Notes under the pieces: generated by a model
Databases searched by the model: none
Told to the model about the DNA's origin: nothing
Seen by the model: the letters and a program-made list of their open reading frames with translations, nothing else
Shown here: piece by piece, positions 35,601 through 55,706 of the stretch
Layout: the number at the start of each line of letters is the position of its first letter
How positions within the stretch are numbered: the stretch's first letter is position 1
Program-made: the position numbers and the translations under genes
Virus record (IMG/VR): IMGVR_UViG_2913147268_000005
Length of the DNA: 64,000 nt
Reading direction: 5' to 3' (one strand)
Source of the DNA: a virus
Taxonomy: Duplodnaviria > Heunggongvirae > Uroviricota > Caudoviricetes

Positions 35601-35630
35601 TATTGATTTTGTCAGATGTGAGTAAACTCC

Positions 35631-36705: not shown

Positions 36706-37339
36706 CATTTTTGGTAATATCCGTCAGCGTCAGCGCATTCAGCCCCAGTGTCAGACTGTCTTTTATGACCTGGAATGCCGGGCCAGCCACTCCATTCAGT
36801 TTCGGAGTAACCGTGGCACTGCCGGCGGTGAACACCAGCTCCAGCGTCTGCCAGTCGTTACTGTAATTCCCGAACTCGCCCAACTTTGTGTTTCCTGCTT
36901 TCTTGTGATGCATCAGATTCAGTTTGCCGTCTGTGGTCTGGGTGAAGAACGACATCAGGAACGGGTTACCAGTCCCGGTCATCGCCACGACGTCAGGTAA
37001 CGCTACATCGGTATACAGATAAATTCCCAGACCGAACTGATTGTTGGTCAGTGCGCCTGACAGTCGAAACTTACAGCTCAGTCTGCCACCCCGTGTCAGC
37101 AGGGAGACTGCGTCATCCACCGGGCGCGTCAGGGACCAGGCTTTATTGCTCTGCTTGGTGATCTTAAATACACCATCTGACAACTGAATTCCGCCATTCT
37201 TAATGCTCCAGCCCTGCGCAGCAGCATCTCCGGCTGTCGGCAACAGGGAGATTGTGCGTACGGATGCATCTTCAGACGGCCCCGATGGCGTGTCGCCGCC
37301 GGGCGAGGGTTTGATTTCCGGTGCCTTACCACTAGTCAT
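36677..37339 (-). pseudogene. Inverted gene fragment (220-aa ORF) starting with the 56-bp repeat and ending in the antisense of the esterase fragment
   Basis: Begins MTSGKAPEIKPSPGGDTPSGP (the same peptide the 54243 ORF encodes at its junction); the last ~10 codons are antisense to 36677-36705. Confidence 0.45.
37278..37333 (-). repeat. 56-bp inverted repeat, left copy
   Basis: Reverse complement reads AGTGGTAAGGCACCGGAAATCAAACCCTCGCCCGGCGGCGACACGCCATCGGGGCC, identical to 55434-55489 by my reading. Confidence 0.8.
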
Positions 37340-37393
37340 CGGGCATTATCTGAACATAAAACACTATCAATAAGTTGGAGTCATTACCCAAAA

Positions 37394-37804
37394 ATGCACG
37401 CAAAAGAAGAAGGTATCATCAGAGCACTGAAAGAAATTTCAAAGACAGAAAACGAAGTAGCGAAAAAAGCCATAGCAAATAATCATATGGACGTCGCAAC
37501 CCACACACTGATAGTCGCAAGAGTCACGGCAGAAGCAGCCGAAATTATCGCAAAACAGGATGCTGAACTGGCGGTTCTCAGAACACAACCAGTCACCGGA
37601 CTGGATTTGTCTAACACCGGACGCCTTATTTACACAATTGGCTCGGAGCTACAGCGATACACCATTATCGCCGGGTTACAGGATAAATACCTGATCACTC
37701 CTCACCCCATAAGGGAATCAGAAATTCTGACAAATCTCCGCCTGATAGAGCGCTCTCAAGTCGCATTCATTGATGACGCACAGTGCACCGTATTTAACGC
37801 ATAG
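37394..37804 (+). CDS. Hypothetical protein (136 aa)
   Basis: ORF with ATG start at the left end of the P2-like module. Confidence 0.5.
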   Translation: MHAKEEGIIRALKEISKTENEVAKKAIANNHMDVATHTLIVARVTAEAAEIIAKQDAELAVLRTQPVTGLDLSNTGRLIYTIGSELQRYTIIAGLQDKYLITPHPIRESEILTNLRLIERSQVAFIDDAQCTVFNA

Positions 37805-37827
37805 AGTTACTGGACAAAGGGGGCGCA

Positions 37828-38031
37828 ATGGCAATTAAGCATTTTCCCGTCGTTCGCTTTACCTCCAGAGGGCGCGAATACGAGGTCGACGAACGCCTGA
37901 TTACCACTATCGACAAACATCGTTCGGAAAAGGATGCACACCACATCTACCTCACTGACGGCACTTACTTCTGCGCCACTAATGTGGCGCGGGTAAACCT
38001 TATCCGACAGGTACAGGAGCCACGCAGATGA
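37828..38031 (+). CDS. Hypothetical small protein (67 aa)
   Basis: ORF overlapping the next gene by 4 nt. Confidence 0.4.
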   Translation: MAIKHFPVVRFTSRGREYEVDERLITTIDKHRSEKDAHHIYLTDGTYFCATNVARVNLIRQVQEPRR

Positions 38032-38294
38032 CCATTCTGGACTACATCGCTACTCATCCGGGGTGTAGCGGCGGAGAGATCGCCGCAGCACTGAATACTC
38101 CAACCACAGCCATTAATGCTGAGTTACGCCAACTTTGGCGCGGCGGCTTAGTCATCAGAACAAACCGCAGCACAGGTGGTCGCGCTCGCAAAACTGGAGG
38201 CCAGGCTTCTTACCACGTAAACCCGATGCCGTTCGGGTGTAGCAATCCACTTACTCACATGTTTAACCAGCTACTGAAGGAAGCCAGAACATGA
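38028..38294 (+). CDS. Winged-helix DNA-binding protein (88 aa)
   Basis: HPGCSGGEIAAAL motif shared with the N-terminus of the 8829-9323 protein. Confidence 0.5.
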   Translation: MTILDYIATHPGCSGGEIAAALNTPTTAINAELRQLWRGGLVIRTNRSTGGRARKTGGQASYHVNPMPFGCSNPLTHMFNQLLKEART

Positions 38295-38590
38295 GCACCA
38301 TCAACCACCAGAAGCTACGCGAACTGGCATTTGCCCTGCAACGAATGGCAACACCTCAAAAATTACTGGCATTTCGCGCAATGCTCTCGCCGTCTGCTGC
38401 GCTGGCATTGCTGGATGAGCTGGAGCACGCCAGAACCACGGCTCCTGCCATTCGCCTGACGCTCCATCATGAAATCGCTGATTTCTGCGCGACATTGGAG
38501 GTGCCAGGCGAACCGGAAACGCCGGAAGCAATACAGCAAGAGCTGCTGCAACGTATTGACAAGGTTTTTGATTTTTTTCTGAACCAGTAA
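38291..38590 (+). CDS. Hypothetical protein (99 aa)
   Basis: ORF overlapping the upstream gene by 4 nt. Confidence 0.5.
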   Translation: MSTINHQKLRELAFALQRMATPQKLLAFRAMLSPSAALALLDELEHARTTAPAIRLTLHHEIADFCATLEVPGEPETPEAIQQELLQRIDKVFDFFLNQ

Positions 38591-38713
38591 GAAACCAGAG
38601 CATGCACACACAAAAAAACCGCTTGCCATGCCGCAATCAGTCAGGTTACATTTCCGCTGCACCTCATAAAACGGGTGCCGGGTTTCGCAGCCTGCTGACT
38701 ACACAAGCGCACA

Positions 38714-38733
38714 ACCGCGCCAGCGGTTTTTTT
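38714..38733 (+). terminator. Intrinsic terminator candidate (ACCGC-GCCA-GCGGT plus T7)
   Basis: Hairpin plus T-run about 125 nt after the 38291-38590 gene. Confidence 0.45.
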
Positions 38734-38912
38734 GTGCGTACTGTATTGCCACGTTTTTTTCGCGTCAGAATTATGGCGGGGCGTACGGGGCCGACTTCGG
38801 TCGGGCCGGGTTCTTGTGTAGCCGGTACTGCGAACCTCGTACGTCTCGCCACCCACAGTTTCGCAGCTCTGGATGGTGAGTTTTCACAACTTACTACACA
38901 AGGGGCCACACC

Positions 38913-39143
38913 ATGGCAAACCGCAAACAGCACCGCGCTATCGCGGAGCGTCGTCACATCCAGACTGAAATCAACCGCAGACTTTCCCGCGCATCACGCG
39001 TCGCGCAAATCATGCACATCAATATGCTGCATGAGCGCAGCCACGCACTATCAAACATTTATTCCGCCTCTGTTTTCAGCTATCTGGCGGATGATCTGCA
39101 CGAGCTTCAACAGCTCATCCAGCAGCAAAACAAACTCCATTAA
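38913..39143 (+). CDS. Hypothetical small basic protein (76 aa)
   Basis: ORF with protein-like composition; overlapped by a longer low-complexity frame that I reject. Confidence 0.35.
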   Translation: MANRKQHRAIAERRHIQTEINRRLSRASRVAQIMHINMLHERSHALSNIYSASVFSYLADDLHELQQLIQQQNKLH

Positions 39144-39215
39144 TTCCTGTTCCGGGCCTTTCCTGCACCTTGCGGCGGGAGGCCTTCGCACATCTGTAAC
39201 AAGAGGATTGCCGCA

Positions 39216-39581
39216 ATGATTCTCGCCAACGACTTTCTTGAATACCTGCTCAATACAGAACGTGATCTTGCCGCTCGCGTGCGTGATCGTTATGACATGT
39301 ACCTGAAATCCCTGCCTGTACCGCAGCTCGCTGACGGAAAGATTGTTATTGATGGTCGCTACATGATTGACAGCCACGAGGGAAATTACAGGCTTTACCG
39401 CATTGAAGGTGGCACCCCGTCCGTTATTGGCATTTACCAGCGCCCATCCTCTGCAATCGTCGATGTGATTGCCGACAGCATCCGCATCACACATCGCCAT
39501 GCCGACACAGAAGACACCGTGCTGGAAATTCAGCGGCTGGCTACAGTCTGCCGCGACACCCTGAATGGCATGACGAAGTAA
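39216..39581 (+). CDS. Hypothetical protein (121 aa) immediately upstream of the replication gene
   Basis: ORF ending 6 nt before the gpA-like start. Confidence 0.5.
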   Translation: MILANDFLEYLLNTERDLAARVRDRYDMYLKSLPVPQLADGKIVIDGRYMIDSHEGNYRLYRIEGGTPSVIGIYQRPSSAIVDVIADSIRITHRHADTEDTVLEIQRLATVCRDTLNGMTK

Positions 39582-39587
39582 ATCACT

Positions 39588-42410
39588 ATGACGGCAGAGT
39601 ACCTCAGGGACTGGCAACAACCGCGCCACGCAGTGGGGCGTGAAGGAACGGGGATCCCCGCTCCTGAATCCGCGCTTTCCTCCTGGCTGGATGCCTACCG
39701 GGCAGAGAACGAGCGCCGCCAGGAAATGGCTGATGCGGCGTTCTCAGCCACGCCGCTGGGCAACCTGATTAATAAAAGCCTGGACGCACAGGAAAAACAG
39801 GACAAAACCATCACACTGGCAGGAGACGCCAGAAAACAGGCACGTGGCGCGGTGGATGAAGCCATGGCCTCGCTGCGCCTGCTGCCGTCCTATCTGCGCG
39901 ATCCGCTTATTCGCCACCTCTCCTTCCTGCGCAAAAAACAGGAAGCCGATCGCCGGAAAGGCAAAAAGAGCTGGCAGGCGGAACGCTATGCACGCGGAAC
40001 CCTGCGCAAAATATTCGAACGTCTGGATAGCACTGACGGACGCTGGCTGACACCGGGTTATCGCTCCCTTGCCGGACGCGAACGCCTGGACGATTTGCTT
40101 TACCTGCCGCAGCTCAACAAACACCAGATACAGACGCTGGCCACCATGACGGCGGCGATGTTCAGCAGCACCTTCGAAAAACTCTGCGATGGCTTTGGCG
40201 CGACCGATGGCGAGCTGACCATGGATGTAACCCTGAAGGCGTATCAGATGCTGGCCCGCATGGCGTTACACCTGCACGCCATGCCTCCACATTATGACGC
40301 ACTGACAACAGACAAAGACCGGAGGAACGAACCGGACACGGAGCTGCTGCCGGGCGCAATCCTTCGCCTGACCTGTGCGGAATGGTGGAAACGCAAACTG
40401 TGGCTGTTACGTTGCGAGTGGAGAGAAGAACAACTCCGCGCCGCCTGTCTGGTTTCCAGAAAAACATCACCCTATCTGAGCCAGGACGCGTTAAGCGAGT
40501 TTCGCGCACAGCGCGAGAAAACACGCGATTTCCTGAAAAGTTTCATGCTGGAAAATGAAGACGGGTTCACGATTGATCTCGAGACAGTGTATTACGCGGG
40601 AGTAAGTAACCCGGTTCACCGTAAGGCAGAAATGATGGCCACCATGAAGGGACTGGAACTTCTGGCCGAAGCCCGTGGCGACAAAGCGGTGTTTCTGACT
40701 GTCACCTGCCCGTCAAAATACCACGCCACAACGGAGAACGGTCATCCGAATCCCAAATGGAACGGGGCCACAATGCGCGACTCCAGCGATTACCTGGTTA
40801 ACACGTTTTTTGCGGCGGTCCGCAAAAAACTGAACCGCGACGGCCTGCGCTGGTATGGCATCCGCACGGTGGAGCCTCATCATGACGGCACCGTGCACTG
40901 GCATATGATGGTCTTTGCACATCCGGAAGAAATCGACACCATTGTGTCCCATACCCGCGATATTGCCATTCAGGAAGACCGCCACGAGCTGGGCAATGAT
41001 ATTACTCCGCGCTTTAAGGTGGAGTATGTCGACGGCTCAAAAGGCACGCCAACCAGCTACATCGCCACCTACATCGGAAAGAACCTGGACAGCCGCGCCG
41101 TGGATGGCATCGACCCGAAAACGGGCAAGCCACGCGTGGACCACGAAACCGGAAAATCAATGGCCGAGAGCGTGGAGCGCGCCATCGGCTGGGCGCGCCT
41201 TCACCGGGTCCGTCAGTTCCAGTTCTTTGGCATCCCCTCCCGTCAGGTGTGGCGTGAACTGCGCCGCCTTGCCAGCCAGATGGCACGCAATCCGGAAGGC
41301 CCGCAACGGCTGAAAGATGATGCAATGGATGCGGTACTCGCTGCCGCCGATGCCGGGTGTTTTGCCACCTACATTGAAAAACAGGGTGGCGTGCTTGTTC
41401 CACGCAAGGACTACCTGATTCGCACCGCCTACGACCTCGCAGATGAGCTGAACGATTACGGCGAACAGAGCGTACAGATTTACGGGATCTGGTCACCACT
41501 CATCGGGGAATCCTCCCGTGTGTGCACGCATCCGGATAACTGGAAGCTGGTAAGACGTAAACCGGAAGCGGAAGACAGCGCCCGCGAAAATGGTTTTGAC
41601 CTTCAGGGCGGCCCTGCCGCCCCTTGGACTCGTGGCAATAACTGTCCCCGTGTACAGGAAACGGACAACAACGGGACAGAACAGCCGGAAGAACGGCCAG
41701 CACCGTGGCCGCAGCTCCCTGACGGCGTTGAAGTGAACGAATGGATGCGCTCACTGAAACGACACGAACGCCGGGCGCTGATGCGTTCGCTTCGTGACAA
41801 ACAGGCAAAAAACAGCAGCGATGAAATGCAGAGCTGGACACAGAGCCGCAAACAGCAGCGGCCTTTGCCTGATAACCACGAATTACTCGCTAAAGAATGG
41901 CGGGAGTCTGCTGAATCTCTCGGCCTGCATATCGGTGAACAACAGATGCAGCACCTGTTACGGGGCGGCAGTCTGTACGTTGACGGCAGCATCATTGCAC
42001 CGCAGGGATTTGAAATTGTACGCAAACCGGATACCCGCCCGGACAGCCGAATCACGCAGCTCTGGCAGCGCCTGAGCCGTAATCATGGCGTAAGCAGCAC
42101 GGAGATCCGCCATAACCCGGTCGCCAGCTATCTGGCACAGCTGGGGGCATCAGACCCTGAAGCCGCCGCACGCCTGGCATCCACACTTCAGCAGGGCCAG
42201 AACACCATGAAAACACCCGTTACCGTGCTTTCTGACATGCTGCGCGCCATCCGCGACGCAGAGCACGCACAGAGAATCAGTGAAACCACTGAACGCGCCA
42301 GCCGCAAAGCAGACCTGCTGCGGGGTGGCCTGACCAGTGGAAACAAAAAACAGACAGAAACGGGACTTACGAATCCCGTAAATGAGCAAAAAACGCGCAG
42401 CGATATATGA
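39588..42410 (+). CDS. Rolling-circle replication endonuclease, P2 gpA family
   Basis: 940 aa; HUH-type motif (GTVHWHMMVF) and paired tyrosines (SYIATYIGK). Confidence 0.8.
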   Translation: MTAEYLRDWQQPRHAVGREGTGIPAPESALSSWLDAYRAENERRQEMADAAFSATPLGNLINKSLDAQEKQDKTITLAGDARKQARGAVDEAMASLRLLPSYLRDPLIRHLSFLRKKQEADRRKGKKSWQAERYARGTLRKIFERLDSTDGRWLTPGYRSLAGRERLDDLLYLPQLNKHQIQTLATMTAAMFSSTFEKLCDGFGATDGELTMDVTLKAYQMLARMALHLHAMPPHYDALTTDKDRRNEPDTELLPGAILRLTCAEWWKRKLWLLRCEWREEQLRAACLVSRKTSPYLSQDALSEFRAQREKTRDFLKSFMLENEDGFTIDLETVYYAGVSNPVHRKAEMMATMKGLELLAEARGDKAVFLTVTCPSKYHATTENGHPNPKWNGATMRDSSDYLVNTFFAAVRKKLNRDGLRWYGIRTVEPHHDGTVHWHMMVFAHPEEIDTIVSHTRDIAIQEDRHELGNDITPRFKVEYVDGSKGTPTSYIATYIGKNLDSRAVDGIDPKTGKPRVDHETGKSMAESVERAIGWARLHRVRQFQFFGIPSRQVWRELRRLASQMARNPEGPQRLKDDAMDAVLAAADAGCFATYIEKQGGVLVPRKDYLIRTAYDLADELNDYGEQSVQIYGIWSPLIGESSRVCTHPDNWKLVRRKPEAEDSARENGFDLQGGPAAPWTRGNNCPRVQETDNNGTEQPEERPAPWPQLPDGVEVNEWMRSLKRHERRALMRSLRDKQAKNSSDEMQSWTQSRKQQRPLPDNHELLAKEWRESAESLGLHIGEQQMQHLLRGGSLYVDGSIIAPQGFEIVRKPDTRPDSRITQLWQRLSRNHGVSSTEIRHNPVASYLAQLGASDPEAAARLASTLQQGQNTMKTPVTVLSDMLRAIRDAEHAQRISETTERASRKADLLRGGLTSGNKKQTETGLTNPVNEQKTRSDI

Positions 42411-42486
42411 AGCGCGCACAAAACAGGCAAAAACGGGATTTCAGAATCCCGTAAACGATTAATTAATCAACATAAGGAAAAGCGAC

Positions 42487-43446
42487 ATGAAAATTTGTAT
42501 CGACGACGGCTCCACCAACATCAAGCTGGCATGGACTGAGAATGGCGAACGCCGCAACGCCATCAGCCCGAACAGCTTCAAGTCGGAATGGTCTGCGCCG
42601 TTCGGTGGCATGCAGCCCGCGAACTACATGCTTGATGGCGTGCGCTATGGTTTTGATCCGGTTAGCGATCGCTTTGTCCAGACGACCGACACGCAATACC
42701 AGTACAGCGATGTGAATGTAATCGCCATTCATCACGCGCTGGTCAAATCAGGCATCACGCCACAGGAGGTGGATGTGGTTGTCACCCTGCCACTGAGCGA
42801 GTATTTCGACACAAACGCACAGCCGGACATGGCCAACATCAACCGCAAAAAAGCGAACGTTATGCGCCCGGTGGAATACCAGAACGGCGAAGCATTCACT
42901 ATCCGTAACGTGCGGGTTATGCCTGAATCCATTCCGGCTGGCTTTAAAGCACTGGCTGACATGAGTCCGTTTGAATCCCTGCTGATTGTGGATTTAGGCG
43001 GAACCACGCTGGATGTGGCAAAGGTTCAAGGGCAACTGGCAGGTATCAGCCAGGTGTTTTGCGATCCACACGTAGGCGTTTCCCTGATGGCCGATGCCGT
43101 ACTGTCGGTGATGGCCACTAACGGTATGCGCACCAGTCACCACATCGCCAATACCATTATCGAACATCGCCATGATGAAGCCTGGCTGCGCCAGCACATC
43201 CACAATGACGCGCATTACGCCAGCCTGATGGCGGTTATTCGTGAAAAGGAAGAAACACTGAAACAACGCGTGATCCGCGCGCTGGCGGTTTTTTCGGGTT
43301 ACGGGCGGGTGATGGTTGTCGGTGGAGGGGCGGAGATTGTGGCACCCGCTATCCGCGAAGTCTGCGGAGTTAATGCGACTTTCATCGCGGACGGGGTGCC
43401 ACAGTTTGCTCTGGTTAATGGGCTGTACGCAATGGACAAGGAGTAA
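42487..43446 (+). CDS. ParM/StbA-like actin-fold ATPase
   Basis: Phosphate-1 (KICIDDGSTNIKLAW) and phosphate-2 (LIVDLGGTTLDVA) motifs of the actin/Hsp70 fold; 319 aa. Confidence 0.7.
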   Translation: MKICIDDGSTNIKLAWTENGERRNAISPNSFKSEWSAPFGGMQPANYMLDGVRYGFDPVSDRFVQTTDTQYQYSDVNVIAIHHALVKSGITPQEVDVVVTLPLSEYFDTNAQPDMANINRKKANVMRPVEYQNGEAFTIRNVRVMPESIPAGFKALADMSPFESLLIVDLGGTTLDVAKVQGQLAGISQVFCDPHVGVSLMADAVLSVMATNGMRTSHHIANTIIEHRHDEAWLRQHIHNDAHYASLMAVIREKEETLKQRVIRALAVFSGYGRVMVVGGGAEIVAPAIREVCGVNATFIADGVPQFALVNGLYAMDKE

Positions 43447-43450
43447 ACCA

Positions 43451-43765
43451 ATGACGACACCAACCAGACGGATAAGTTTCTATCTGAAGCCCGCCGCCGT
43501 CAAGAGTGAACAGGAGGCGTGCAATTACCTCGATAGCCTGCCAGCCTCCGAACGCAGCCGCGCGCAACGCGCGGCCTTTCTGGCTGGGCTAGCGCTCATA
43601 AAGCGCAACCCAGCATTTGCCTACTGGATGGCCGAATGGCCAGAGGACAACCTCCCCTTCAATACCGTTAGCATCAAGGAAACATACCAGGATAATCAGC
43701 CTAGCGGAGTTGAATGCAATTTTTATAAAATAAAAAAGAATATTCAGACCTTATTCCCAGAATAA
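43451..43765 (+). CDS. Small protein downstream of the ParM-like gene (ParR-like adaptor candidate)
   Basis: ATG at 43451 behind a GGAGTAAACC RBS; N-terminal RISFYL beta-strand-like start; assignment is positional only. Confidence 0.4.
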   Translation: MTTPTRRISFYLKPAAVKSEQEACNYLDSLPASERSRAQRAAFLAGLALIKRNPAFAYWMAEWPEDNLPFNTVSIKETYQDNQPSGVECNFYKIKKNIQTLFPE

Positions 43766-43848
43766 TCTGATAATTGTATGTGAACTAATAAAATACAGAC
43801 CAACACATCATTCTGGCACCCTTGCTAACAGGGTGCCAATGTTTCAAA

Positions 43849-44691: not shown

Positions 44692-44730
44692 ACTTCCCCC
44701 TGTGTTACTTGTAAATTAAAGGGTAAAACA

Positions 44731-45228
44731 TTATTTGTTTTTCCGTAAAGGATTAGCTTTCCATCTTCTTACTAACCATTCGAATTCTTGATATGTAGTA
44801 TCCGAATTAATGCTTTCTCTGATTGCTTTAATTAATGGCTCGGCAATATCATATGTCTCTACAACTGTTGTGTAAGATGTTCTTTTTATCATTTTTTCAT
44901 CATAAATACCTTCACGAATACTTACAGCAACTCGCTCGTAAAAATTTAAAATATATTGAAATTTTCGACGCTCGGCCATTTCTTCATCTGTTATTATGCA
45001 ACCATCACAAGGAAAAACATAAGAACGAAATGATTTGCCTGAACGATGCACTTGTTTCAGGGTATGCAATGACTCTATATATTGCATATCTTGCCGACTC
45101 TCAAAAAGAAAGTTGGCCGTTTGAGTTTTTTTTGCGGTACGCACATTGTAGATAATGGTTCCAATGGCAACCAAAACGCCAAGCAGAACAATAGCATTGC
45201 TGATGATTTGTAGTGTTATTGGGTTCAT
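44731..45228 (-). CDS. N-terminally membrane-anchored protein (165 aa), AT-rich cargo
   Basis: One N-terminal TM helix (LQIISNAIVLLGVLVAIGTIIY) then a soluble domain containing CDGC; first gene of the operon. Confidence 0.55.
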   Translation of the reverse strand: MNPITLQIISNAIVLLGVLVAIGTIIYNVRTAKKTQTANFLFESRQDMQYIESLHTLKQVHRSGKSFRSYVFPCDGCIITDEEMAERRKFQYILNFYERVAVSIREGIYDEKMIKRTSYTTVVETYDIAEPLIKAIRESINSDTTYQEFEWLVRRWKANPLRKNK

Positions 45229-45248
45229 CCTATTTCATCCATAAAAAA

Positions 45249-45275
45249 GGCGGGGAGCAAATCCCCGCCTCATTA
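45249..45275 (-). terminator. Hairpin (GGCGGGGA/TCCCCGCC) plus U6 on the minus strand, about 15 nt upstream of the 44731-45228 RBS
   Basis: Perfect 8-bp stem with 5-nt loop; T-run on the minus strand. Confidence 0.55.
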
Positions 45276-46476: not shown

Positions 46477-46483
46477 AAAGGAC

Positions 46484-47537: not shown

Positions 47538-49288
47538 CAGAACTCCATAACCATGAAACGCTCGTTTTCTCCTTCGCCGCCAATTGGTTCGTTAATGACA
47601 GCAAGCATGGTTGCCCACGCAAGGTCGCCGTGGCTGATCCCCCTCGCGCGGTCCGTTTCGTAAGTGATAAAGCCGCCCGGTGTTTTCACCTTACGCACGG
47701 CGTTAAAGGCCGCGACCAGCTCGCGTTCGGCGCGATCGTATTCCCACCGCCCGGCACGCATTATTTGCAGCATTTTCAGTACCAGCGACCGTTTTGATGA
47801 CAGCGTGAAGGTGTACGGAATAGCAGCAGGGAAAAACCGCTTCACTATCTGATAAACAGCCTCCCCGTTCCCGCCCGTCACATCAATGCCGATGTGTTCC
47901 ACGTTGTAGCGACACGTGAACTCTTCAATGACTCTGGCCTGTTCTTCAAACTCCAGCCCCTGAACGCGTCGCGTCTCCACCGTTCGAAAACGGCCGCCAG
48001 GAACAGCCGGAGGAACCACCACGGACACAGCGCCGCTGTCGCCGTTGCCACTACTGCCGTTTGCGTCATACCCAATCCATACCGGACGATTCCCCATCGG
48101 GCGGGGAGCAAAAGGTTTCCAGTCTTTCCAGTCGTCGTATCCGTCAACACCGCAGCCAATCAGGATATTCAGGTTAAATGCCGATTCCCCTTCGCGGACA
48201 AACTCACACATATAGAGATTGAGGAACTCGTCTTCGGTGTTTTCATCACGAATTTCGTCGATATCGGTGTGTTTCCAGCCGTGATTAACCACATCTTCCA
48301 GCGTGACAATTTGCCGCCACGTCCGGTCAGGGCAGATAAGCCCATTATGCAGCGTTTTCCAGTCCACAGAAAAACGCTGGCGTTTATGCGAGGCCTTTTT
48401 CTCGTTCCAGCGGTCGCCGTTCCAGTAGGCGTATGCCTCGTGCGTTTCGGTGGATGGCGTGGAGAAGTAGGTGCGCCGCAGTCCGCTGAGGGTTGCCATA
48501 GCGCCAGCCACCTTGCGCAGTTCAGCAAAGCGACTGACCCAGAAAAATTCATCAAAATAAAAATTGCCCGTATAGGACTGTGCCGACGCAGCAGAAGTGC
48601 CGAGAAAATGCAGCTCTGCGCCGTTGGAGAGGATGATTTTATCGCCCCCTTTCAGCTCCACATCAACTTCAGCCGCGGCCTTCTGAATAATGCTTTTAAA
48701 CTGGAACGCCTGACGACGCGACGCAGACAAAAAAATCTGGTTACGCTGGTAAGGTTGCGCCACATCGTCACGCAGCGCCATCAGCAGTGCTTCCTGTGCA
48801 AAATACCAGGTCGCCCCAATCTGTCGGGATTTCAGGATCATCCTGTTACGTATCCCGGCTTCCCTGCAAAGGGTCAGGGAGTCAAACCAGCCCCGCTGAT
48901 GCCACTCCAGCCTGCTGATGATTTTTTCCCGCAGTGCGGCAATCTGTTCCGGCGTGAAATGATTTTTGAGTTTTTTCGCCCGGCCTTTCTTTCCTGCGGC
49001 CATCACATCCGGCTGGCCATCATGCAGCTTTTTAAGCTGCCGGGTCAGCAGGTCTATTTCCTTAAAGTCACCGCCTGTTTTATTCTGTTTTTCAGTAAGC
49101 TGGATGAGGCGCGCATCGATGGACTGCGTGACACGCTGCACGGGTGGCGTTTCATCCCACTGGTCACGTTTTTTCCACGCATAAATCGTGTTCGGGTTTA
49201 TTCCCATCAGACGTGATATTTCTGCGGGCGGATAACCCTGCCAGTAAAGTTGCCGCGCACGCTGGCGCACAAAAGCGTCCTGAATCAT
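47537..49288 (-). CDS. Terminase ATPase subunit (P2 gpP-like)
   Basis: 583 aa with N-terminal HTH-like segment (LYWQGYPPAEISRLMGINPNTIYAWKK); co-directional with the portal gene. Confidence 0.85.
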   Translation of the reverse strand: MIQDAFVRQRARQLYWQGYPPAEISRLMGINPNTIYAWKKRDQWDETPPVQRVTQSIDARLIQLTEKQNKTGGDFKEIDLLTRQLKKLHDGQPDVMAAGKKGRAKKLKNHFTPEQIAALREKIISRLEWHQRGWFDSLTLCREAGIRNRMILKSRQIGATWYFAQEALLMALRDDVAQPYQRNQIFLSASRRQAFQFKSIIQKAAAEVDVELKGGDKIILSNGAELHFLGTSAASAQSYTGNFYFDEFFWVSRFAELRKVAGAMATLSGLRRTYFSTPSTETHEAYAYWNGDRWNEKKASHKRQRFSVDWKTLHNGLICPDRTWRQIVTLEDVVNHGWKHTDIDEIRDENTEDEFLNLYMCEFVREGESAFNLNILIGCGVDGYDDWKDWKPFAPRPMGNRPVWIGYDANGSSGNGDSGAVSVVVPPAVPGGRFRTVETRRVQGLEFEEQARVIEEFTCRYNVEHIGIDVTGGNGEAVYQIVKRFFPAAIPYTFTLSSKRSLVLKMLQIMRAGRWEYDRAERELVAAFNAVRKVKTPGGFITYETDRARGISHGDLAWATMLAVINEPIGGEGENERFMVMEF

Positions 49289-49442
49289 TGCTCCCCCTGA
49301 GTAATTACAGGAAGATTACCCGCGCGCGAAACTGTTCTCCTTAACCCTCTGTTCTGACTGTTTTCTTACAACAAAAGCCCTTTGTATCAGCCTGTTACGC
49401 TTTGCCATCATGACTGAAGAACCAGTCAGAGGGGCAAAAACT

Positions 49443-50279
49443 ATGGCTAATGAAAAAAAGACATCCCGCAAAAAGTTTCGCGTGGCTGTCTCCGGATCAA
49501 CTGTTGATGGCCGTGAAATCAGTCCGGTGCATCTGCGTGAAGCCGCCGAGAACTTCAACCCGGATGTTTACGCTGCCCGCGTGAACGTTGAGCACTATCT
49601 CTCGCCATGTCCGTCAAGCGAATTTTCCGCAATGGGCGATGTCACCGCACTGAGTACGGAAGACATTACGGAAGGTCCGCTGGCCGGACGTACTGCGCTG
49701 TATGCAGAAATCGAACCGACCGAGCGCATGAAGCAGCTTGTCGCTGACGGCAAGAAAATCTATTCCAGTATCGAACTGCACCCGCAGTTCTCCGTTAACG
49801 GGCGCGCCTATCTGGTCGGGCTGGCGATGACCGACACCCCGGCAAGCCTGGGCACTGAGCGCCTGAAATTCACGGCACAGCAACGTCAGGCGGTGATGAC
49901 GTTCAACAGTATCCAGGGTGAAGCACCGCTTATCTCCGAAGCCATCGAGTCTGAAATCATCGAAATGGCAGAACAACGCCAGGAAGAAGGCACCCAGTGG
50001 TTTAACCGCGTAATGGGGATTATTGGTCGTGGCCGCAAAGCGGATGACGCCAGTTTCTCCCGAATTCAGGAAGCGGTGGAAGGCGTTGCAACGTCACAGG
50101 CCGACATTATCGACCGTTTTAATGTGCTGGAAACCCGCCATCAGCAGGACCGCCAGAAAATCACGTCACTGACCACAGAGCTGACAGCATTGAAGGAAAA
50201 ACTGCGCACGCAGGACGGCGATCCGCAGAACCGCTTCACCGCAACGGGCGCAGCCTCCGACCAGCTGGCTGACTTCTGA
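49443..50279 (+). CDS. Capsid scaffolding protein (P2 gpO-like)
   Basis: ATG at 49443 behind a GAGGGG RBS; N-terminus (KKFRVAVSGSTVDGREIS...VNVEHYL) resembles P2 gpO. Confidence 0.8.
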   Translation: MANEKKTSRKKFRVAVSGSTVDGREISPVHLREAAENFNPDVYAARVNVEHYLSPCPSSEFSAMGDVTALSTEDITEGPLAGRTALYAEIEPTERMKQLVADGKKIYSSIELHPQFSVNGRAYLVGLAMTDTPASLGTERLKFTAQQRQAVMTFNSIQGEAPLISEAIESEIIEMAEQRQEEGTQWFNRVMGIIGRGRKADDASFSRIQEAVEGVATSQADIIDRFNVLETRHQQDRQKITSLTTELTALKEKLRTQDGDPQNRFTATGAASDQLADF

Positions 50280-50302
50280 TAAGACAAAGGAGCAAATTTT
50301 TT

Positions 50303-51355
50303 ATGAATCTGGTGATGTCAGATATTACCCGCAACAAGCTGGGTTGCTATATGGCGCAGCAGGCGTCGCTTAACAATATCCCGGTATCTGCACTGGTATC
50401 GCGATTTACCGTGGAACCCGCGGTGCAGCAGCGTTTTGAAAACGCCTCAAAGGAAAGTACCGAATTTACGAAAAGAATTAACGTGATCGGCGTGACCGAC
50501 CAGAAAGGCGAAAAAATCCTCCTGGACACCACCGGGCCAATTGCGCGCACGAATAGCAGTTATGACGGCATCAAACGCCGTAACCCGAATAACGTGATCG
50601 ATATGAAGTCTCGTCAGTACCAGTGCGAACAGGTGAACTACGATACCTTTATTTCGTACCCACAGCTTGATACCTGGGCGGCCCACAGCGATTTTCAGTC
50701 CCGTATCAGTACACAGATCGCCCGGCAGGTAGCGCTTGATCGCATCATGATTGGCTTTAACGGCACATCCCACGCCTACGAGTCTGATTTTCACACCAAC
50801 AAGCTGCTTCAGGACGTTAACGTGGGCTGGCTGGAGCACATCAGAACCGATGCCAGCGAGCGCGTAATGAATGACGTGACGCTGACCTCCCGCAACATGG
50901 ACAACACTGTGGCGCACGCGGGTAAGTATGCGAATGCCGATGCTCTGGTACAGGATGCGCGCTCATCCCTGCTGGATGAATGGCACAAGGAAGCTGACGA
51001 CCTCGCGGTGATTATGGGGCGCAACCTGTTTAACTCGCTGCGTCTGCCCGTGCTGAACAGCATCAGCGGCCAGAATCCCAATGCGGAATTACTTGCCGGG
51101 CAGCTCATCCTGTCATCGCGCACCATTGGCGGGCTGGGCGTGTTCCTTGCGCCGTTCTTCCCGGATGCAACGATGCTTATCACCTCGTTCAACAACCTGT
51201 CGATTTACTGGCAGAAAGGTTCAATGCGTCGCCTGATGAAAGACGAGCCGGAATACAACCGCATCGCCACCTACCAGTCCATCAATGACGCTTATGTCGT
51301 TGAAGACTATGGCAAGTGCGCGATGGTCACTGGCCTGAAGTTCGCCGACAGCTAA
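50303..51355 (+). CDS. Major capsid protein (P2 gpN-like)
   Basis: 350 aa; resembles P2 gpN (RFTVEP...QESxxFxxRINV... GFNG ... LITxxxNLSIY). Confidence 0.8.
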   Translation: MNLVMSDITRNKLGCYMAQQASLNNIPVSALVSRFTVEPAVQQRFENASKESTEFTKRINVIGVTDQKGEKILLDTTGPIARTNSSYDGIKRRNPNNVIDMKSRQYQCEQVNYDTFISYPQLDTWAAHSDFQSRISTQIARQVALDRIMIGFNGTSHAYESDFHTNKLLQDVNVGWLEHIRTDASERVMNDVTLTSRNMDNTVAHAGKYANADALVQDARSSLLDEWHKEADDLAVIMGRNLFNSLRLPVLNSISGQNPNAELLAGQLILSSRTIGGLGVFLAPFFPDATMLITSFNNLSIYWQKGSMRRLMKDEPEYNRIATYQSINDAYVVEDYGKCAMVTGLKFADS

Positions 51356-51400
51356 TCAACTCACGGCGGGCATCATGCCCGCCTGTAACGGAGAGAAAAA

Positions 51401-52201
51401 ATGATTACTCCTGCACAACAACACTGGCAGAACGTGATGGCACAGCGCGCAGGCCGGGCGAATGAAGGTGTGGACCACGCCGCGTGTACCGCGCATGAAG
51501 AGGTGCTGTATCGTCTGCGTCTGGCACAGGCCAGGCTAAAGGCCATACAGGCCAGAAGCGCGAAAGCCGCCATCAAAAAAGAGTTGTTGCCGGACTTTTC
51601 CGGCTGGATTGAGGGAACGCTGGAGGCTGACGGCGGGCAACAGGACGAAGTAATTGCCACGCTGATGGTGTGGGCGATTGACTGCGGCGATCTTCCGCTG
51701 GCGCTGCGTATTGGTGCATATGTGGTCCGTCACAACCTCATCATGCCGGATAACTTTGGCCGTACTGCTGCCACGGTACTGACCGAAGAAATCTGCAACC
51801 CGGTACTGACGCAGGCTGGGACGGATGCCGACGCGGATTTATCCGCCTTTATCGAACCACTGGACACACTTTGGGAAATTATCGCCAACCAGGACATGCC
51901 GGACGAAGTGCGCGCCAAATTATGCAAGGCGTGTGCCTTTGCCCGTCGTGGCCTGACCGATGCAGACAACATGGCCTCATCACTGAAGCTGCTGCGCGAA
52001 GCGATGCACCTGAACCCGAACGCAGGTGTGAAACGCGAGATTGCAACCCTTTCCCGCGCCCTGAAAAAAGCCGATTCCGCAGCCGAACCAGAAGACGCCA
52101 GCGCACAGCAGGCGCAGGACGAAAGCAGCAAAAGTAAAAAGACAACGCGGAAGCCTGCAACACGAAAAACCACCGCGACGCAGAAGGCAAAGCGCGGTTA
52201 A
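51401..52201 (+). CDS. Terminase endonuclease/small subunit (P2 gpM-like)
   Basis: 266 aa with MPDEVRAKL motif and a basic C-terminal tail, following the capsid gene. Confidence 0.8.
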   Translation: MITPAQQHWQNVMAQRAGRANEGVDHAACTAHEEVLYRLRLAQARLKAIQARSAKAAIKKELLPDFSGWIEGTLEADGGQQDEVIATLMVWAIDCGDLPLALRIGAYVVRHNLIMPDNFGRTAATVLTEEICNPVLTQAGTDADADLSAFIEPLDTLWEIIANQDMPDEVRAKLCKACAFARRGLTDADNMASSLKLLREAMHLNPNAGVKREIATLSRALKKADSAAEPEDASAQQAQDESSKSKKTTRKPATRKTTATQKAKRG

Positions 52202-52302
52202 CGACTGACCCCGTCAGCGGGCGGCGTGCGCGGTGTTCCGGTTTGACTCCGTGACCGTTTACACCGCGCACCCACCGCCCGATTTTTTCAGGAGTGAACC
52301 CC

Positions 52303-52797
52303 ATGAGTATGGTTGCCAGAACTAACCCCGGCCCCGCAGAGGACGACATCACCGACACCGATGATGGCGATACCCGTATTTCAGCGGGTGCATTCTGGCC
52401 GGATATTGTGCTGCGCGAGCTGCGTCTGGCGGTACGACTGCCGGGCCGCGTGACCACCTCCCGCCTGCTGCATACCGCCACCGGGGCCATAGCACACGTT
52501 ACCCGCGAGCTGGAAGCATGGCAGCAGGAACAACAGGCGGCTGGCTATCAGACGCTGGCCGATGTTCCGGCCCCTGTAATTAACGGAGAAAGCGTCAATC
52601 TCTGGCACTGGCGCAATGCTGTTTATACCGCCACACGCGCCCTGATTCTGGAGCGTTACCGCGATGCGGACACAACGGACAAGGGCGACCGCCGGGCGGA
52701 CGCACTGGATATACAGACATCGGATTTGTGGCGCGATGTGAGCTGGGCCATCTCTGACATTCTGGGACGACCGCGAATGTTTGCGGAGCTGTGCTGA
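52303..52797 (+). CDS. Head completion protein (P2 gpL-like)
   Basis: ATG at 52303 behind a CAGGAG RBS; about 165 aa at the gpL position. Confidence 0.7.
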   Translation: MSMVARTNPGPAEDDITDTDDGDTRISAGAFWPDIVLRELRLAVRLPGRVTTSRLLHTATGAIAHVTRELEAWQQEQQAAGYQTLADVPAPVINGESVNLWHWRNAVYTATRALILERYRDADTTDKGDRRADALDIQTSDLWRDVSWAISDILGRPRMFAELC

Positions 52798-52997
52798 TGA
52801 AAGTGAAGGCACTGGAAGGCGACACCGTGGATTCGCTCTGTTTCCGGTACTACGGCACGACACAGGGCGTCACCGAAAAGGTGCTGGATGCCAACCCCGG
52901 ACTCTGTCAGCAGGTATTTCTGGACGCCGGGCAGGAAGTGGAGATGCCGGAGCCGGAGAAGAAGAAACGAGAAATGATTCAGTTGTGGGGGGAGTAG
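52797..52997 (+). CDS. Tail protein X-like (LysM-like small protein)
   Basis: ATG overlaps the upstream stop (TGATG); 66 aa resembling P2 gpX. Confidence 0.7.
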   Translation: MKVKALEGDTVDSLCFRYYGTTQGVTEKVLDANPGLCQQVFLDAGQEVEMPEPEKKKREMIQLWGE

Positions 52998-52999
52998 CA

Positions 53000-53323
53000 G
53001 TGAGCACCATTCAAACAGGGATCACAGAGCAGGTTATTGCGTGGCTCTTTGACCACCTGCCAACGGTGTATGCAGTAGGCGCGGCGGTCAGCATTTCCGC
53101 GCTGATGAGTCTTTATGACGGACGAACACTGGTTCAGACCGTAACGGGATCGCTGGCGTGCGGCGTTCTTGCCATGGCCGTGGCCGGGTCGCTGCGCTTC
53201 TTCGGGATCCCTGAGGATGCAGTGACGTTTTTTGGTGCCTCAATCGGTTTTATGGGCGCAGAGAAAGCACGCGACAAGGTTATTGCAATATTTGATCGCA
53301 GGGTGAAGGAGAGGAACGAATGA
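53000..53323 (+). CDS. Holin (putative)
   Basis: GTG start 2 nt after the X stop; about 107 aa with two or three hydrophobic helices; directly precedes the endolysin. Confidence 0.55.
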   Translation: MSTIQTGITEQVIAWLFDHLPTVYAVGAAVSISALMSLYDGRTLVQTVTGSLACGVLAMAVAGSLRFFGIPEDAVTFFGASIGFMGAEKARDKVIAIFDRRVKERNE

Positions 53324-53712
53324 GCAACACATTTAAATTCAGCAGCCGGAGCGAAAAGAATTTGCAGGGTGTAAATCCTGATCTGGTGAAAGTGACCCGA
53401 CGGGCGCTGGAAATCTCGGAAGTGGATTTTGGTATCACCGAAGGATTGCGCAGTCGTTATCGTCAGAAGCAGCTCGTGACCACAGGCAAGAGCCAGACCA
53501 TGAACAGTCGCCATCTCACAGGGCATGCCGTGGATGTTGTGGCTTATGTCGGCAACCAGGTGTCATGGGAATGGCCGCTGTACGAAAAAATCGCAGCAGC
53601 ATTCAGACAGGCCAGCCAGGAACTGAATATTCCGGTGGAATGGGGCGGCGACTGGAAGACCCTGAAAGACGGACCGCATTTTCAGTTACCACACGGAGCC
53701 TATCCGGCATGA
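53320..53712 (+). CDS. Endolysin, peptidase M15 family
   Basis: 130 aa with His/Asp metal-binding residues (LTGHAVDVV ... GPHFQL) typical of M15 L-Ala-D-Glu peptidases. Confidence 0.7.
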   Translation: MSNTFKFSSRSEKNLQGVNPDLVKVTRRALEISEVDFGITEGLRSRYRQKQLVTTGKSQTMNSRHLTGHAVDVVAYVGNQVSWEWPLYEKIAAAFRQASQELNIPVEWGGDWKTLKDGPHFQLPHGAYPA

Positions 53713-54104
53713 AGCTCTGGCCCACGCTTGGCGTCGCTTTCCTTCTGATTACATCCATGCGTCTGTCGTGGTCGCTGGGCCGGGAGAACGCCAGAAACGA
53801 AGCGCAGGCCAGCACCCTGAAAAGTACCGTCGACACACTGAATATCATCAGCGCCGGGGTACAGGATATGCAGCAGGTGCTGGCTCAGCTCCGCGCGGAA
53901 AATCAGCAACGCAATCAGGACGGAGAGGTAAGACGTGAACAGCTACGCAACGATATTGCAAAAGATGAATGCGCCCACGCTTTGCCTGACGCTCGTTTTA
54001 CTGACAGGTTGCGCAGGCACGCAGAACGCGCCAGGGCCAGCGCCGTCAGTCCGGCTTATACCGCAGACGCTGACCATGCCGGTAACGCCTCCCCCCTTCC
54101 CTGA
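53709..54104 (+). CDS. Inner-membrane spanin (LysB/Rz-like)
   Basis: ATG overlaps the endolysin stop (ATGA); N-terminal TM helix then Gln/Arg-rich coiled-coil region. Confidence 0.6.
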   Translation: MKLWPTLGVAFLLITSMRLSWSLGRENARNEAQASTLKSTVDTLNIISAGVQDMQQVLAQLRAENQQRNQDGEVRREQLRNDIAKDECAHALPDARFTDRLRRHAERARASAVSPAYTADADHAGNASPLP

Positions 54105-54246
54105 CCCACCCACATGGGGAAACCTCGGAATATGGGGCGACCGCCTTCTGGATGCACTGGAAACCTGTAACGCGGATAAACGGGCCATTGCTGAACTGGA
54201 TAAGAGAATAGCCGAACTGACACACCAGACGGGAGTAACACAATGA
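53935..54246 (+). CDS. Outer-membrane lipoprotein spanin (LysC/Rz1-like), overlapping the i-spanin
   Basis: GTG start behind a GGAGAGG RBS; lipobox (LLTGCAG); Pro-rich mature region. Confidence 0.6.
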   Translation: MNSYATILQKMNAPTLCLTLVLLTGCAGTQNAPGPAPSVRLIPQTLTMPVTPPPFPDPPTWGNLGIWGDRLLDALETCNADKRAIAELDKRIAELTHQTGVTQ

Positions 54247-55706
54247 CCAGTAAGAACTTTGCACTGATTACAGCCATGACACAGGCTGAACTGACTCAAA
54301 AGGTGAATGAACATCTTGCGAAAGGGTGGCATCTTCAGGGGGAGACGCGGGTTGCCTACGAACCCGGCACCCCGTGGTATCTAATGCAGGCAATGGTGGC
54401 CGATGGCACTACAGACATCTCACCTGATTCCCCCCAGCACGGCAGCGTGCCGGAGTGGTATTACGTGGTGGTACTTGCTGGTCAATCCAATGCCATGTCA
54501 TATGGTGAGGGAATGCCGCTGCCGGATTCTTACGATGCGCCCCACCCACGCATTAAGCAACTGGCCCGTCGCAACACAGTGACTCCCGGTGGTAAAGCAT
54601 GCGCATTTAACGACATCATTCCGGCAGACCACTGCCTGCATGATGTTCAGGATATGAGCGCACTGAATCACCCGAATGCAGACCTGAGCAAAGGGCAGTA
54701 TGGCTGTGTCGGACAGGGCTTGCATATTGCCAAACGCCTGTTGCCTTACATTCCACAGAATGCCGGGATTTTACTGGTTCCATGCTGTCGTGGTGGTTCG
54801 GCATTCACCCAGGGCGCGGAGGGGACATTCAGCGAGTCCACAGGAGCCAGTCAGGATTCGGCTCGCTGGGGTGTGGGTAAACCTTTATATCAGGACCTGA
54901 TTTTGCGCACGAAGGCCGCATTGCAGAAAAACCCAAAAAACATGCTGCTGGCCGTATGCTGGATGCAGGGCGAATTTGACATGAGCGCCGCTACGTACTC
55001 ACAGCAACCTCCGCTGTTTACGGCCATGCTGAAACAGTTTCGTGCGGACATTACCGAGTTTAACACGCAGTGTCATGGAGGCAGAGCGGCAAGTGTGCCA
55101 TGGATTTGTGGTGACACGACGTATTACTGGAAAAACACCTACGGCACGCAGTACGACACCATTTACGGGGCGTACAAAAACAGGGAGAGCGACAACGTTT
55201 TCTTTGTGCCGTTCCTGACCGATGGTAGTGGCAACAATACCTCCACCAACGCACCAACGGAAGATCCGGATGCTGCAAGTGAGGGATATTACGGTTCGGC
55301 ATCCCGAACGAACAAAAACTGGGTATCATCAAATCGCCAGACGCATTTCAGCTCATGGGCGCGTCGTGGCATTATTCCCGATCGTATGGCAACCGCTATT
55401 CTGAACGTAGCCGGTCGCACCTTAGCCTTCATCAGTGGTAAGGCACCGGAAATCAAACCCTCGCCCGGCGGCGACACGCCATCGGGGCCCGGTGACCAGA
55501 CCGAACAGATTGGACACCGTCAGCGACGGTCTGGCACTGCTGCCCTTCCCGCTCATCTCAAAACCGCTGCCGTCAATCGGGTATGCCTGATATTGCCGCC
55601 CCTGCCAGGTGACCGGCTCCCCTTTTTCATTCAGCTCATTACAGAAAAAATACCGCTCACCGCCCTGTACCGTCAGGTCGATTTCCCAGAGTACCACCCG
55701 CGGTGA
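54243..55706 (+). CDS. NanS-p-like sialate O-acetylesterase (DUF1737 plus SGNH/SASA domain); native C-terminus lost
   Basis: GQSNA catalytic motif and a long SASA-type domain; from about 55490 the frame reads antisense through a truncated L gene. Confidence 0.65.
   Translation: MTSKNFALITAMTQAELTQKVNEHLAKGWHLQGETRVAYEPGTPWYLMQAMVADGTTDISPDSPQHGSVPEWYYVVVLAGQSNAMSYGEGMPLPDSYDAPHPRIKQLARRNTVTPGGKACAFNDIIPADHCLHDVQDMSALNHPNADLSKGQYGCVGQGLHIAKRLLPYIPQNAGILLVPCCRGGSAFTQGAEGTFSESTGASQDSARWGVGKPLYQDLILRTKAALQKNPKNMLLAVCWMQGEFDMSAATYSQQPPLFTAMLKQFRADITEFNTQCHGGRAASVPWICGDTTYYWKNTYGTQYDTIYGAYKNRESDNVFFVPFLTDGSGNNTSTNAPTEDPDAASEGYYGSASRTNKNWVSSNRQTHFSSWARRGIIPDRMATAILNVAGRTLAFISGKAPEIKPSPGGDTPSGPGDQTEQIGHRQRRSGTAALPAHLKTAAVNRVCLILPPLPGDRLPFFIQLITEKIPLTALYRQVDFPEYHPR

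Follow-up and report, generated by a model that had tools for sequence, protein, structure and literature searches.

Organization of the Window

The window, i.e., the whole stretch of DNA that was analyzed (64,000 nt), is composed of blocks that are 99.97–100% identical to prophages of Escherichia coli ST131 (Table 1). These blocks are joined bluntly at 33752/33753, 36704/36705, 37333/37334, and 55488/55489, with 0–2 bp of ambiguity and without microhomology.

Block X1 is collinear with the p11A locus L007 (positions 3002–36752, 99.97% identity), and many ST131 genomes match its portion from 9000 to 33752 at 100% identity; all of these matches stop at 33752, where the gene J runs on in those genomes and X1 ends bluntly within it. 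In block X2, a DNA methyltransferase gene (3′ part) is accompanied by two tRNA genes and iraM, together with ~160 codons from the start of a lambdoid NanS-p-like esterase; the block is 100% identical to both strain 4/1-1 (L005 21716–24667) and strain MB1159 (L019 24197–21246). Block X3 (629 bp) is a near-identical repeat common to the lambdoid and P2-like esterase genes, present here with the lambdoid alleles (100% identity to L005 25354–25982, 99.05% to the P2-like copy at L004 13354–13982); the break at 36704/36705 falls inside the left-hand esterase fragment.

The P2-like genes of X4 include a replication endonuclease, ParM/StbB-like genes, a low-GC cargo pair, portal, terminase, capsid, and lysis genes, and the N-terminal and SASA part of an esterase. 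Positions 37334–55489 match MB1159 (L018 1029–19184) at 100.000% identity over 18,156 bp, with 0 mismatches and 0 gaps, and the corresponding locus of 4/1-1 (L004) is 99.994% identical to X4. The esterase start at 54243 is that of the RefSeq CDS (625 aa) in JJ1886 and MB1159, and the truncated gene covers DUF1737, SASA, and the beginning of the C-terminal region. Block X5 runs from nt ~270 of the tail gene L through M, the tape measure, tail, and head genes to the portal, with 99.98% identity to L005 43937–35425 and MB1159 L019 1976–10488; L is cut short at the start of X5 and whole in both reference genomes.

Table 1. Features of the window, with positions counted from its first nucleotide.
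Feature	Position	Strand	Description
Block X1	1–33752	+	Lambdoid prophage 1, from the integrase to ~770 nt into tail-tip gene J
Block X2	33753–36704	+	Fragment of the ompW-site lambdoid prophage
Block X3	36705–37333	−	Esterase C-terminal region, lectin-like domain, DUF6645
Left repeat copy	37278–37333	−	Initial 56 nt of the shared esterase stretch, closing block X3
Block X4, start	37334–37388	+	IS1 right end (last 55 bp), without transposase gene
Block X4, body	37389–55433	+	P2-like prophage, from early genes to the esterase gene
P2-like esterase gene, 5′ part	54243–55488	+	1,246 nt, 415 codons; truncated by the block end
Right repeat copy	55434–55489	+	Final 55 nt of X4 and one further base, C at 55489
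Block X5	55489–64000	−	ompW-site lambdoid prophage again, reversed

The Inverted Repeats and the Reading Frames at Their Two Copies

A repeat search and direct reading of the sequence bear out the two 56-nt inverted copies described in the first-pass annotation: the arms are perfect reverse complements (100% over 56 nt) separated by 18,100 nt, and a chance origin of such a match can be ruled out for 64 kb. Both copies lie where the match to related genomes ends, as had been claimed for them. Translation likewise confirms the reading frames described at each copy. On the right, the plus-strand ORF 54243–55706 reads through the repeat (...FISGKAPEIKPSPGGDTPSGP) and then into antisense tail gene L; on the left, the minus-strand ORF 36677–37339 begins with the repeat peptide (MTSGKAPEIKPSPGGDTPSGP) and continues for ~200 aa. 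Exact protein look-up of the chimeric ORF products retrieved no record. The C at 55489 is compatible with both the esterase and the subsequent L-gene block, and the dinucleotide 55488–55489 (CC) matches L004 and L005 43937–43936 alike, so that the X4/X5 boundary is ambiguous by 2 nt.

A SpeI site (ACTAGT, 37331–37336) lies across the left junction. An engineered origin was considered on this basis and rejected, the site being composed of ACT from the end of the esterase block and AGT from the IS1 fragment. The IS1 end, the breaks at 36704/36705 and 33752/33753, and the 606-bp homology that underlies the repeat are points absent from the earlier annotation.

The Esterase Genes and Their Shared C-Terminal Module

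The 56-nt match reflects two homologous esterase genes, one P2-like (625 aa in its native form) and one lambdoid (617 aa). Identity between them is 82% for the N-terminal and SASA parts and 99–100% for the C-terminal parts. The homology extends over 629 bp at ~99% identity and is exact over 606 bp (L005 25354–25959) in JJ1886, with one SNP in 4/1-1. X3 starts exactly at the repeat boundary because the base ahead of it, L005 25353, differs between the two genes. Only the first 55–56 bp of the 606-bp tract are duplicated in the window, at the right end of X4.

Regarding domains, the native 625-aa protein has Pfam matches to DUF1737 (E = 1e-6), SASA (E = 2e-11), and DUF6645 (E = 2e-19). The prophage-encoded sialate O-acetylesterases of the NanS-p type combine DUF1737, SASA, and a lectin-like C-terminal domain, and modular variation has been reported among them (PMC10462455). 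The P2-like protein thus has a NanS-p-type domain architecture, and the C-terminal module shared by the two genes fits the reported variation (PMC10462455). The lambdoid copy lies between Q/methylase and holin, the same place as nanS-p, whereas the other copy differs from NanS-p in belonging to a P2-like prophage, where it occupies the lysis/tail region, and not to a lambdoid Stx-type phage.

Junctions in Related Genomes and the Possibility of Inversion

In MB1159, the closest complete genome, the two prophages are each intact, and so are the esterase and L genes. There and in 4/1-1, the two esterase genes are in opposite orientation and ~490 kb apart. A real chromosomal inversion, by recombination between the esterase of the P2-like prophage at dmsA and that of the lambdoid prophage at ompW, would therefore have an ample RecA substrate in 606–629 bp of 99–100% identity. 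ST131 offers a plausible substrate of the kind known from E. coli prophage/IS inversions, which likewise involve near-identical inverted sequences and two prophages of one chromosome. However, the whole homology would be expected once at each junction, with the P2 N-terminal part followed by the lambdoid C-terminus and lysis genes at one, and the lambdoid N-terminal part followed by the P2 C-terminus and tail genes at the other. Neither is in the window. Instead, the P2 N-terminal part is followed by only 55–56 bp of the 606-bp homology and then by truncated antisense L, while the other repeat copy abuts 55 bp of IS1. In contrast to the documented inversions, these junctions are not reciprocal products, unrelated truncated sequence following each copy, and the inverted interval would be expected to span ~490 kb and not 18 kb. 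Nor was either repeat junction spanned by any record when both junction regions were searched by megablast against 5,426 complete E. coli genomes, and junction 43-mers were absent, by exact search, from the GTDB genome, IMG/VR, and JGI metagenome collections. An inversion of this kind is accordingly considered very improbable.

The effect of turning the segment back leads to the same view. Inverting 37334–55433, as had been suggested, does restore the native adjacency of the esterase N- and C-terminal parts, which is the only arrangement seen in the related genomes (JJ1886, 4/1-1, and MB1159). The intact ~630-aa esterase anticipated from it does not result: the product has 615 aa, of which the last 8 are junk residues from the break at 36704/36705. 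At the other junction, the flipped form would have a 55-bp IS1 end followed by 56 bp of esterase and truncated antisense L, so that in neither isomer are both junctions coherent, and this second junction is not plausible as an ancestral structure. The flip would merely restore a normal adjacency of contigs.

A ~490-kb inversion could also have occurred in the source strain itself, generating a hybrid esterase with a P2 N-terminal and a lambdoid C-terminal part beyond the resolution of short reads. The lambdoid alleles of X3 next to the P2-side overlap are the only hint of such an event, which has a very small probability. Regarding orientation, the dmsA-P2 region is reversed in strain 4/0; an esterase-mediated inversion was rejected as its cause, since the P2 esterase is in its native context there. 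A site-specific invertible segment (of the Hin/Gin/Cin type or a tyrosine-recombinase shufflon) was also rejected. The repeat is esterase coding sequence, the RefSeq annotation of the identical MB1159 sequence contains no recombinase or invertase between the repeats, and the P2-like integrase and the ST131 tail-fibre invertase are located beyond both the block and the window.

The IS1 End at the Left Junction

The first 55 bp of X4 are the end of a complete IS1A copy found at the same P2 site in MB1159 (L018 1029–1083, the complete element being L018 316–1083). An IS1-mediated inversion or deletion leaves the element complete and brings its terminus rather than an internal position to the new joint, and the IS and its 9-bp target are duplicated. 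A rearrangement by IS1 (inversion by intramolecular transposition or adjacent deletion) could have placed the P2-like segment beside the esterase fragment, given that the IS1 end is exactly at the left junction and that IS1 occupies this P2 site in the related strains p4A, MB1159, and 4993. Yet the window contains no more of the element than its final 55 bp, starting at an internal position that forms the 37333/37334 joint, and what is duplicated is 56 bp of esterase instead of an IS with its 9-bp target. Within the window, there is no complete IS1 with a terminal inverted repeat at the joint, no target-site duplication, and no second IS1 copy or end. Moreover, at 55 bp, the IS1 fragment is as long as the esterase overlap that closes X4 on the other side. 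The probability of an IS1-mediated event is consequently minute.

A search with the first P2 gene of X4 retrieved only long contigs, and no short-read contig ending at the IS1 site was found among the contigs encoding this gene. Variable cargo in a P2 hotspot was observed on these contigs.

Contig Ends as the Probable Origin of the Repeats

SPAdes writes adjacent contigs that share exactly k bases, with a default largest k of 55 for reads of ~100 nt. In a de Bruijn-graph assembly of this type (SPAdes-like, largest k of 55), a unique contig ends with the first k bases of the repeat that it meets. The stretch 37334–55488 fits such a contig exactly, one of its ends being 55 bp of multi-copy IS1 and the other the first 55 bp of the 606-bp tract common to both prophage esterases. 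Exactly 55 bases of adjoining repeat are present at 37334–37388 and at 55434–55488. Since X4 stops 55–56 bp into a 606-bp identity, its end is set by a fixed length and not by the end of homology, and a repeat of set length taken out of a longer homology is characteristic of a contig end in a k = 55 graph. The neighboring 629-bp block is the shared esterase stretch and for that reason opens with the same 55 bp. If the two contigs were written side by side with the P2-like one reversed, the overlap in the graph would show as an inverted repeat 18 kb apart, and the C at 55489, a chance base, would extend it from 55 to 56 nt. The 56-nt pair is hence most likely the leftover 55-base overlap of two short-read contigs juxtaposed in the wrong orientation. 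More generally, the window would be a series of contigs, strung together in arbitrary orientation with no spacers between them, of an ST131 E. coli that is a close relative of MB1159, and as such it is very probably an artefact of assembly or concatenation rather than a real feature. Between inversion and an assembly mis-join at a repeat, the two origins offered in the first-pass annotation, the block and junction evidence favors the mis-join.

What resembles SPAdes-type overlaps is that the 18-kb block carries a repeat-derived tail of a fixed 55 bp at either end, that its neighbor opens with the same 55 bp, and that blocks apparently end where multi-copy sequence starts (IS1, the shared esterase domain, and shared tail genes). 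A multi-copy boundary is evident for IS1 and the esterase repeat and is supported by place counts in MB1159 for the X5 and X2 ends; the end at 36705 is not explained in this way. These counts were obtained with tagged queries of the terminal 55-mers, the places being solved from the counts without the second copies being seen directly: in MB1159, the tag with the terminal 55-mer of X5 or of X2 gave 4 places each, compared with 2 in 4/1-1, while two adjacent inner 55-mers together added only 2–3 places. The place counts thus support the X5 and X2 terminal 55-mers being multi-copy in MB1159, matching contig ends at repeat boundaries. The X5 terminal 55-mer was also found at ≥99% identity in 864 records, as against 479 for the next 55-mer inward. 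Strain 4/1-1 has just one copy each of the X5 and X2 terminal 55-mers, so that the case for a repeat boundary at these two ends is based on MB1159. Apart from the esterase overlap pair, no terminal 55-mer of a block was found elsewhere in the window or in the ST131 loci examined.

Some features depart from this pattern. Unlike a SPAdes-type overlap, the far end of X3 at 36705 (L005 25982) reaches 23 bp beyond the last base common to both esterases in all of the complete genomes examined. A P2 variant with lambdoid alleles, whose divergence point would be the X3 end, was dropped as an explanation after a synthetic 160-nt query gave no 100% match (97.5% at best). A simple k = 55 graph thus does not wholly account for the far end of X3 and the 36704/36705 join. 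Furthermore, the order of the blocks is not sorted by length as in raw SPAdes output. Unlike in documented SPAdes overlaps, the type of assembler and the k value are deduced here, as is the stage of concatenation, which may lie with the submitter or downstream.

The same contig-end mechanism would operate if the joining had taken place in one submitted sequence, by chimeric mis-assembly or gap-free scaffolding, e.g., as a reference-guided pseudomolecule. All of the blocks are pieces of prophages, which ordering against a reference could bring together; the order X2, X3, [X4], X5 roughly tracks the coordinates of the ompW prophage, and X4 has esterase homology with its position in that order. 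However, a reference-guided scaffolder would have oriented X3 and X5 differently, and no feature of the window separates such scaffolding from simple concatenation; this origin is regarded as unlikely.

Implications

Draft contigs that are joined without spacers can generate perfect "inverted repeats," chimeric ORFs (here, one that runs from an esterase into antisense L and one initiated in IS1), and apparently invertible segments, which calls for caution. A fixed 55-bp tail at the ends of blocks is a quick marker of such artefacts. The underlying biology is ordinary, that of an ST131 strain with a P2-like and a lambdoid prophage, each carrying a NanS-p-like esterase with a near-identical C-terminal module. 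Like MB1159, this strain has an IS1 insertion in the early region of its P2-like prophage.

Composition of the window

Local blastn against ST131 loci, with the annotated genomes of strains 4/1-1, JJ1886, p11A, and MB1159 as the reference set, resolves five blocks in the window (X1 to X5, see table). All four joins between them are blunt, with an ambiguity of 0-2 nt and without microhomology, and in the reference genomes the sequence runs on normally beyond every block's end.

Blocks and other features in the window (L005, ompW-site lambdoid prophage locus of strain 4/1-1)
Feature	Position	Strand	Content or context	Identity
X1	1-33752		Lambdoid prophage 1, integrase to first ~770 nt of J	99.97% with p11A
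X2	33753-36704		ompW-site lambdoid prophage, mid-methyltransferase to L005 nt 24667 within esterase gene	100%
X3	36705-37333		ompW-site prophage esterase C-terminal region, L005 25982-25354, reversed	100%
X4	37334-55489		55 bp of IS1 and P2-like prophage, early genes to esterase gene (18,156 bp)	100.000% with MB1159
X5	55489-64000		ompW-site lambdoid prophage, reversed, mid-gene L back to portal gene
Esterase ORF	54243-55706	+	Crosses repeat (...FISGKAPEIKPSPGGDTPSGP), then enters antisense tail gene L
Esterase-fragment ORF	36677-37339	-	Starts with peptide of other repeat copy, then ~200 aa more
Low-GC (31%) gene pair	43849-45228		P2-like prophage, between StbB-like and portal genes
Two overlapping ORFs (182 and 308 aa), ~31% GC island	12872-14333		Prophage 1, Q antiterminator/methyltransferase interval
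162-bp tandem repeat, about 3.3-3.7 copies	62791-63384		ompW lambdoid prophage portal CDS (861 aa)	88-95% between copies
15-bp iteron-like repeat TCTGACCCGTCAAAA, about 4.3 copies	8200-8263		Prophage 1, in replication-initiator-like gene
tRNA(CAT), tRNA-Arg(TCT), anti-adaptor gene iraM	34467-34719 and 35631-35966		ompW prophage late-regulatory region, upstream of esterase

Origin of the inverted repeats

The two 56-nt copies reported in the first-pass annotation are real: by repeat search and direct reading, 37278-37333 and 55434-55489 are 100% complementary, with 18,100 nt between them, and translation of the window ORFs bears out its description of the esterase ORFs at their ends. The segment that they flank is nevertheless very probably an assembly mis-join at a repeat and not a real genomic feature, an alternative already raised in that annotation and supported by the 55-nt block tails, the blunt joins, and the absence of the junctions elsewhere.

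Regarding the tails, MB1159 has a full-length IS1 (768 bp) at the P2 site where X4 starts, of which the window holds the last 55 bp only (37334-37388), base 37333 being a mismatch to IS1. At the other end, the P2-like and lambdoid esterases are only 82% identical upstream of L005 25354, where their identity begins, and the tract that follows shows no difference over 606 bp in JJ1886, and 99% identity over 629 bp with one extra SNP in 4/1-1. X3 starts at exactly the first base common to both esterases. Since X4 stops 55-56 nt inside this longer shared tract, the 56-bp repeat is a fixed-length slice of the esterase homology, not its full extent. The CC at 55488-55489 is compatible with the esterase as well as with the L-gene block; a 55-nt tail is therefore fully consistent and equals in length the IS1 tail with which X4 opens. 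Adjoining SPAdes contigs overlap by k, the default largest k being 55 for ~100-nt reads. These ends of X4 and X3 are of the kind that contigs have in de Bruijn-graph assemblies run at k = 55, in which the unique P2 contig would end in k bases of each repeat it meets and the repeat contig would start with those same k bases. With the P2 contig flipped beside the repeat contig, the overlap would appear as an inverted repeat, which one chance base would lengthen from 55 to 56 nt.

For the remaining block ends, copies were counted as matching places, each query being joined to a tag that puts MB1159 at the top of the ranking. The tag with the X5 terminal 55-mer gives 4 places in MB1159 vs 2 in 4/1-1, as does the tag with the X2 terminal 55-mer; with the tag, both adjacent inner 55-mers together give 4 vs 3, the two 55-mers of the 33752/33753 join 6 vs 4, and all five terminal 55-mers 12 vs 8. 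The MB1159 counts are satisfied either by two copies of the tag and of each terminal 55-mer with one of each inner 55-mer, or by one copy of the tag, three of each of the two terminal 55-mers, and three in total of the two inner 55-mers. Either way, these place counts imply that the X5 and X2 terminal 55-mers are multi-copy in MB1159, the closest complete genome, and commoner than the sequence just inside, as expected if contigs end at the borders of repeats. When all genomes are counted, 864 records have the X5 terminal 55-mer at 99% identity or more vs 479 for the next 55-mer inward, which points to a mosaic boundary there.

In 5,426 complete E. coli genomes nothing spans either junction (0 places covering at least 80% of any junction query), the junction 43-mers have no match in the GTDB genome, IMG/VR, and JGI metagenome collections, and look-up of the chimeric ORF products found no record. 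MB1159 has both the IS1-in-P2 marker and the X4-identical sequence, and there the two prophages are intact, with whole esterase and L genes, and lie ~490 kb apart with their esterase genes inverted relative to each other. A real RecA-mediated exchange between these genes would invert ~490 kb and produce a P2 N-terminus and lambda C-terminus followed by lysis genes, and a lambda N-terminus and P2 C-terminus followed by P2 tail genes, neither being in the window. An IS1-mediated event would leave the whole IS1 in place, its terminus forming the new joint, unlike what is found in the window.

It had also been proposed that inversion between the repeats would rebuild an intact esterase of ~630 aa. 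Flipping 37334-55433 does bring the N-terminal part of the P2 esterase back next to the shared C-terminal part, as in the native gene, but the product has 615 aa (native esterases, 625 and 617 aa) and its last 8 residues are junk because of a second break. The other junction would then make no sense, combining an IS1 end with a piece of the esterase and a truncated L. With the homology only sliced, the flipped isomer incoherent, and the RecA products absent from the window, such an inversion is rejected. Annotation of the MB1159 counterpart holds no invertase within or beside the segment.

The mis-join model with k = 55 only partly accounts for the 36704/36705 join, where esterase L005 nt 24667 meets inverted L005 25982, making a chimeric 262-aa ORF (36212-37000). 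X3 extends 23 nt beyond the last base common to the two esterases, with five lambdoid-specific SNPs there, and no P2 variant making L005 25982 a true repeat boundary was found (best match, 97.5%); the join is therefore not explained in detail, and could stem from a chimeric contig, from path extension by the assembler, or from an allele specific to the strain. The blocks are also not in length order within the window. At the 33752/33753 join, gene J of prophage 1 is fused to a mid-gene position in the methyltransferase of the ompW prophage.

Other features of the prophages

Where IS1A is inserted into the early region of the P2-like prophage, in MB1159, p4A, and 4993, ~0.7 kb is lost (157-1083 of the MB1159 locus L018 vs 32027-32760 of the 4/1-1 locus L004): one hypothetical gene is cut short, and a small ORF and DUF4754 are gone. 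This marks a sublineage including the window's strain. The serC-dmsABC-P2 region is oppositely oriented in strains 4/0 (L020) and 4/1-1 (L004), in both of which the P2-like prophage and a second cluster of tail genes meet tail-to-tail, close to a tail-fibre/invertase region. This may be a real rearrangement, unconnected with the window repeat.

The low-GC pair, on the minus strand, comprises a DUF4760 protein and a 280-aa ORF with a weak PADLOC Csx27-like match only (E = 1e-5). In other P2-like prophages (L008-L017), the cargo at this spot differs (Fic/Phd, AAA+/S8 peptidase, HTH/M78 plus DUF3368, Rrf2), and the spot seems to be a variable hotspot for accessory or defence genes. The two overlapping minus-strand ORFs of prophage 1 have no Pfam or PADLOC match and are both hypothetical in RefSeq. 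The iteron-like repeat is typical of a lambdoid origin, the tandem repeat encodes in-frame 54-aa repeats in its long portal-annotated CDS, and the tRNA(CAT) is Ile according to RefSeq vs Met according to ARAGORN.

Modularity of the esterases

Prophage NanS-p sialate O-acetylesterases combine an N-terminal, a SASA, and a C-terminal module, each of which varies independently of the others (PMC10462455). The native P2-like protein, with its DUF1737, SASA, and DUF6645 domains, has the same architecture (PMC10462455), and the C-terminal module common to the P2-like and lambdoid esterases is a normal case of NanS-p modularity.
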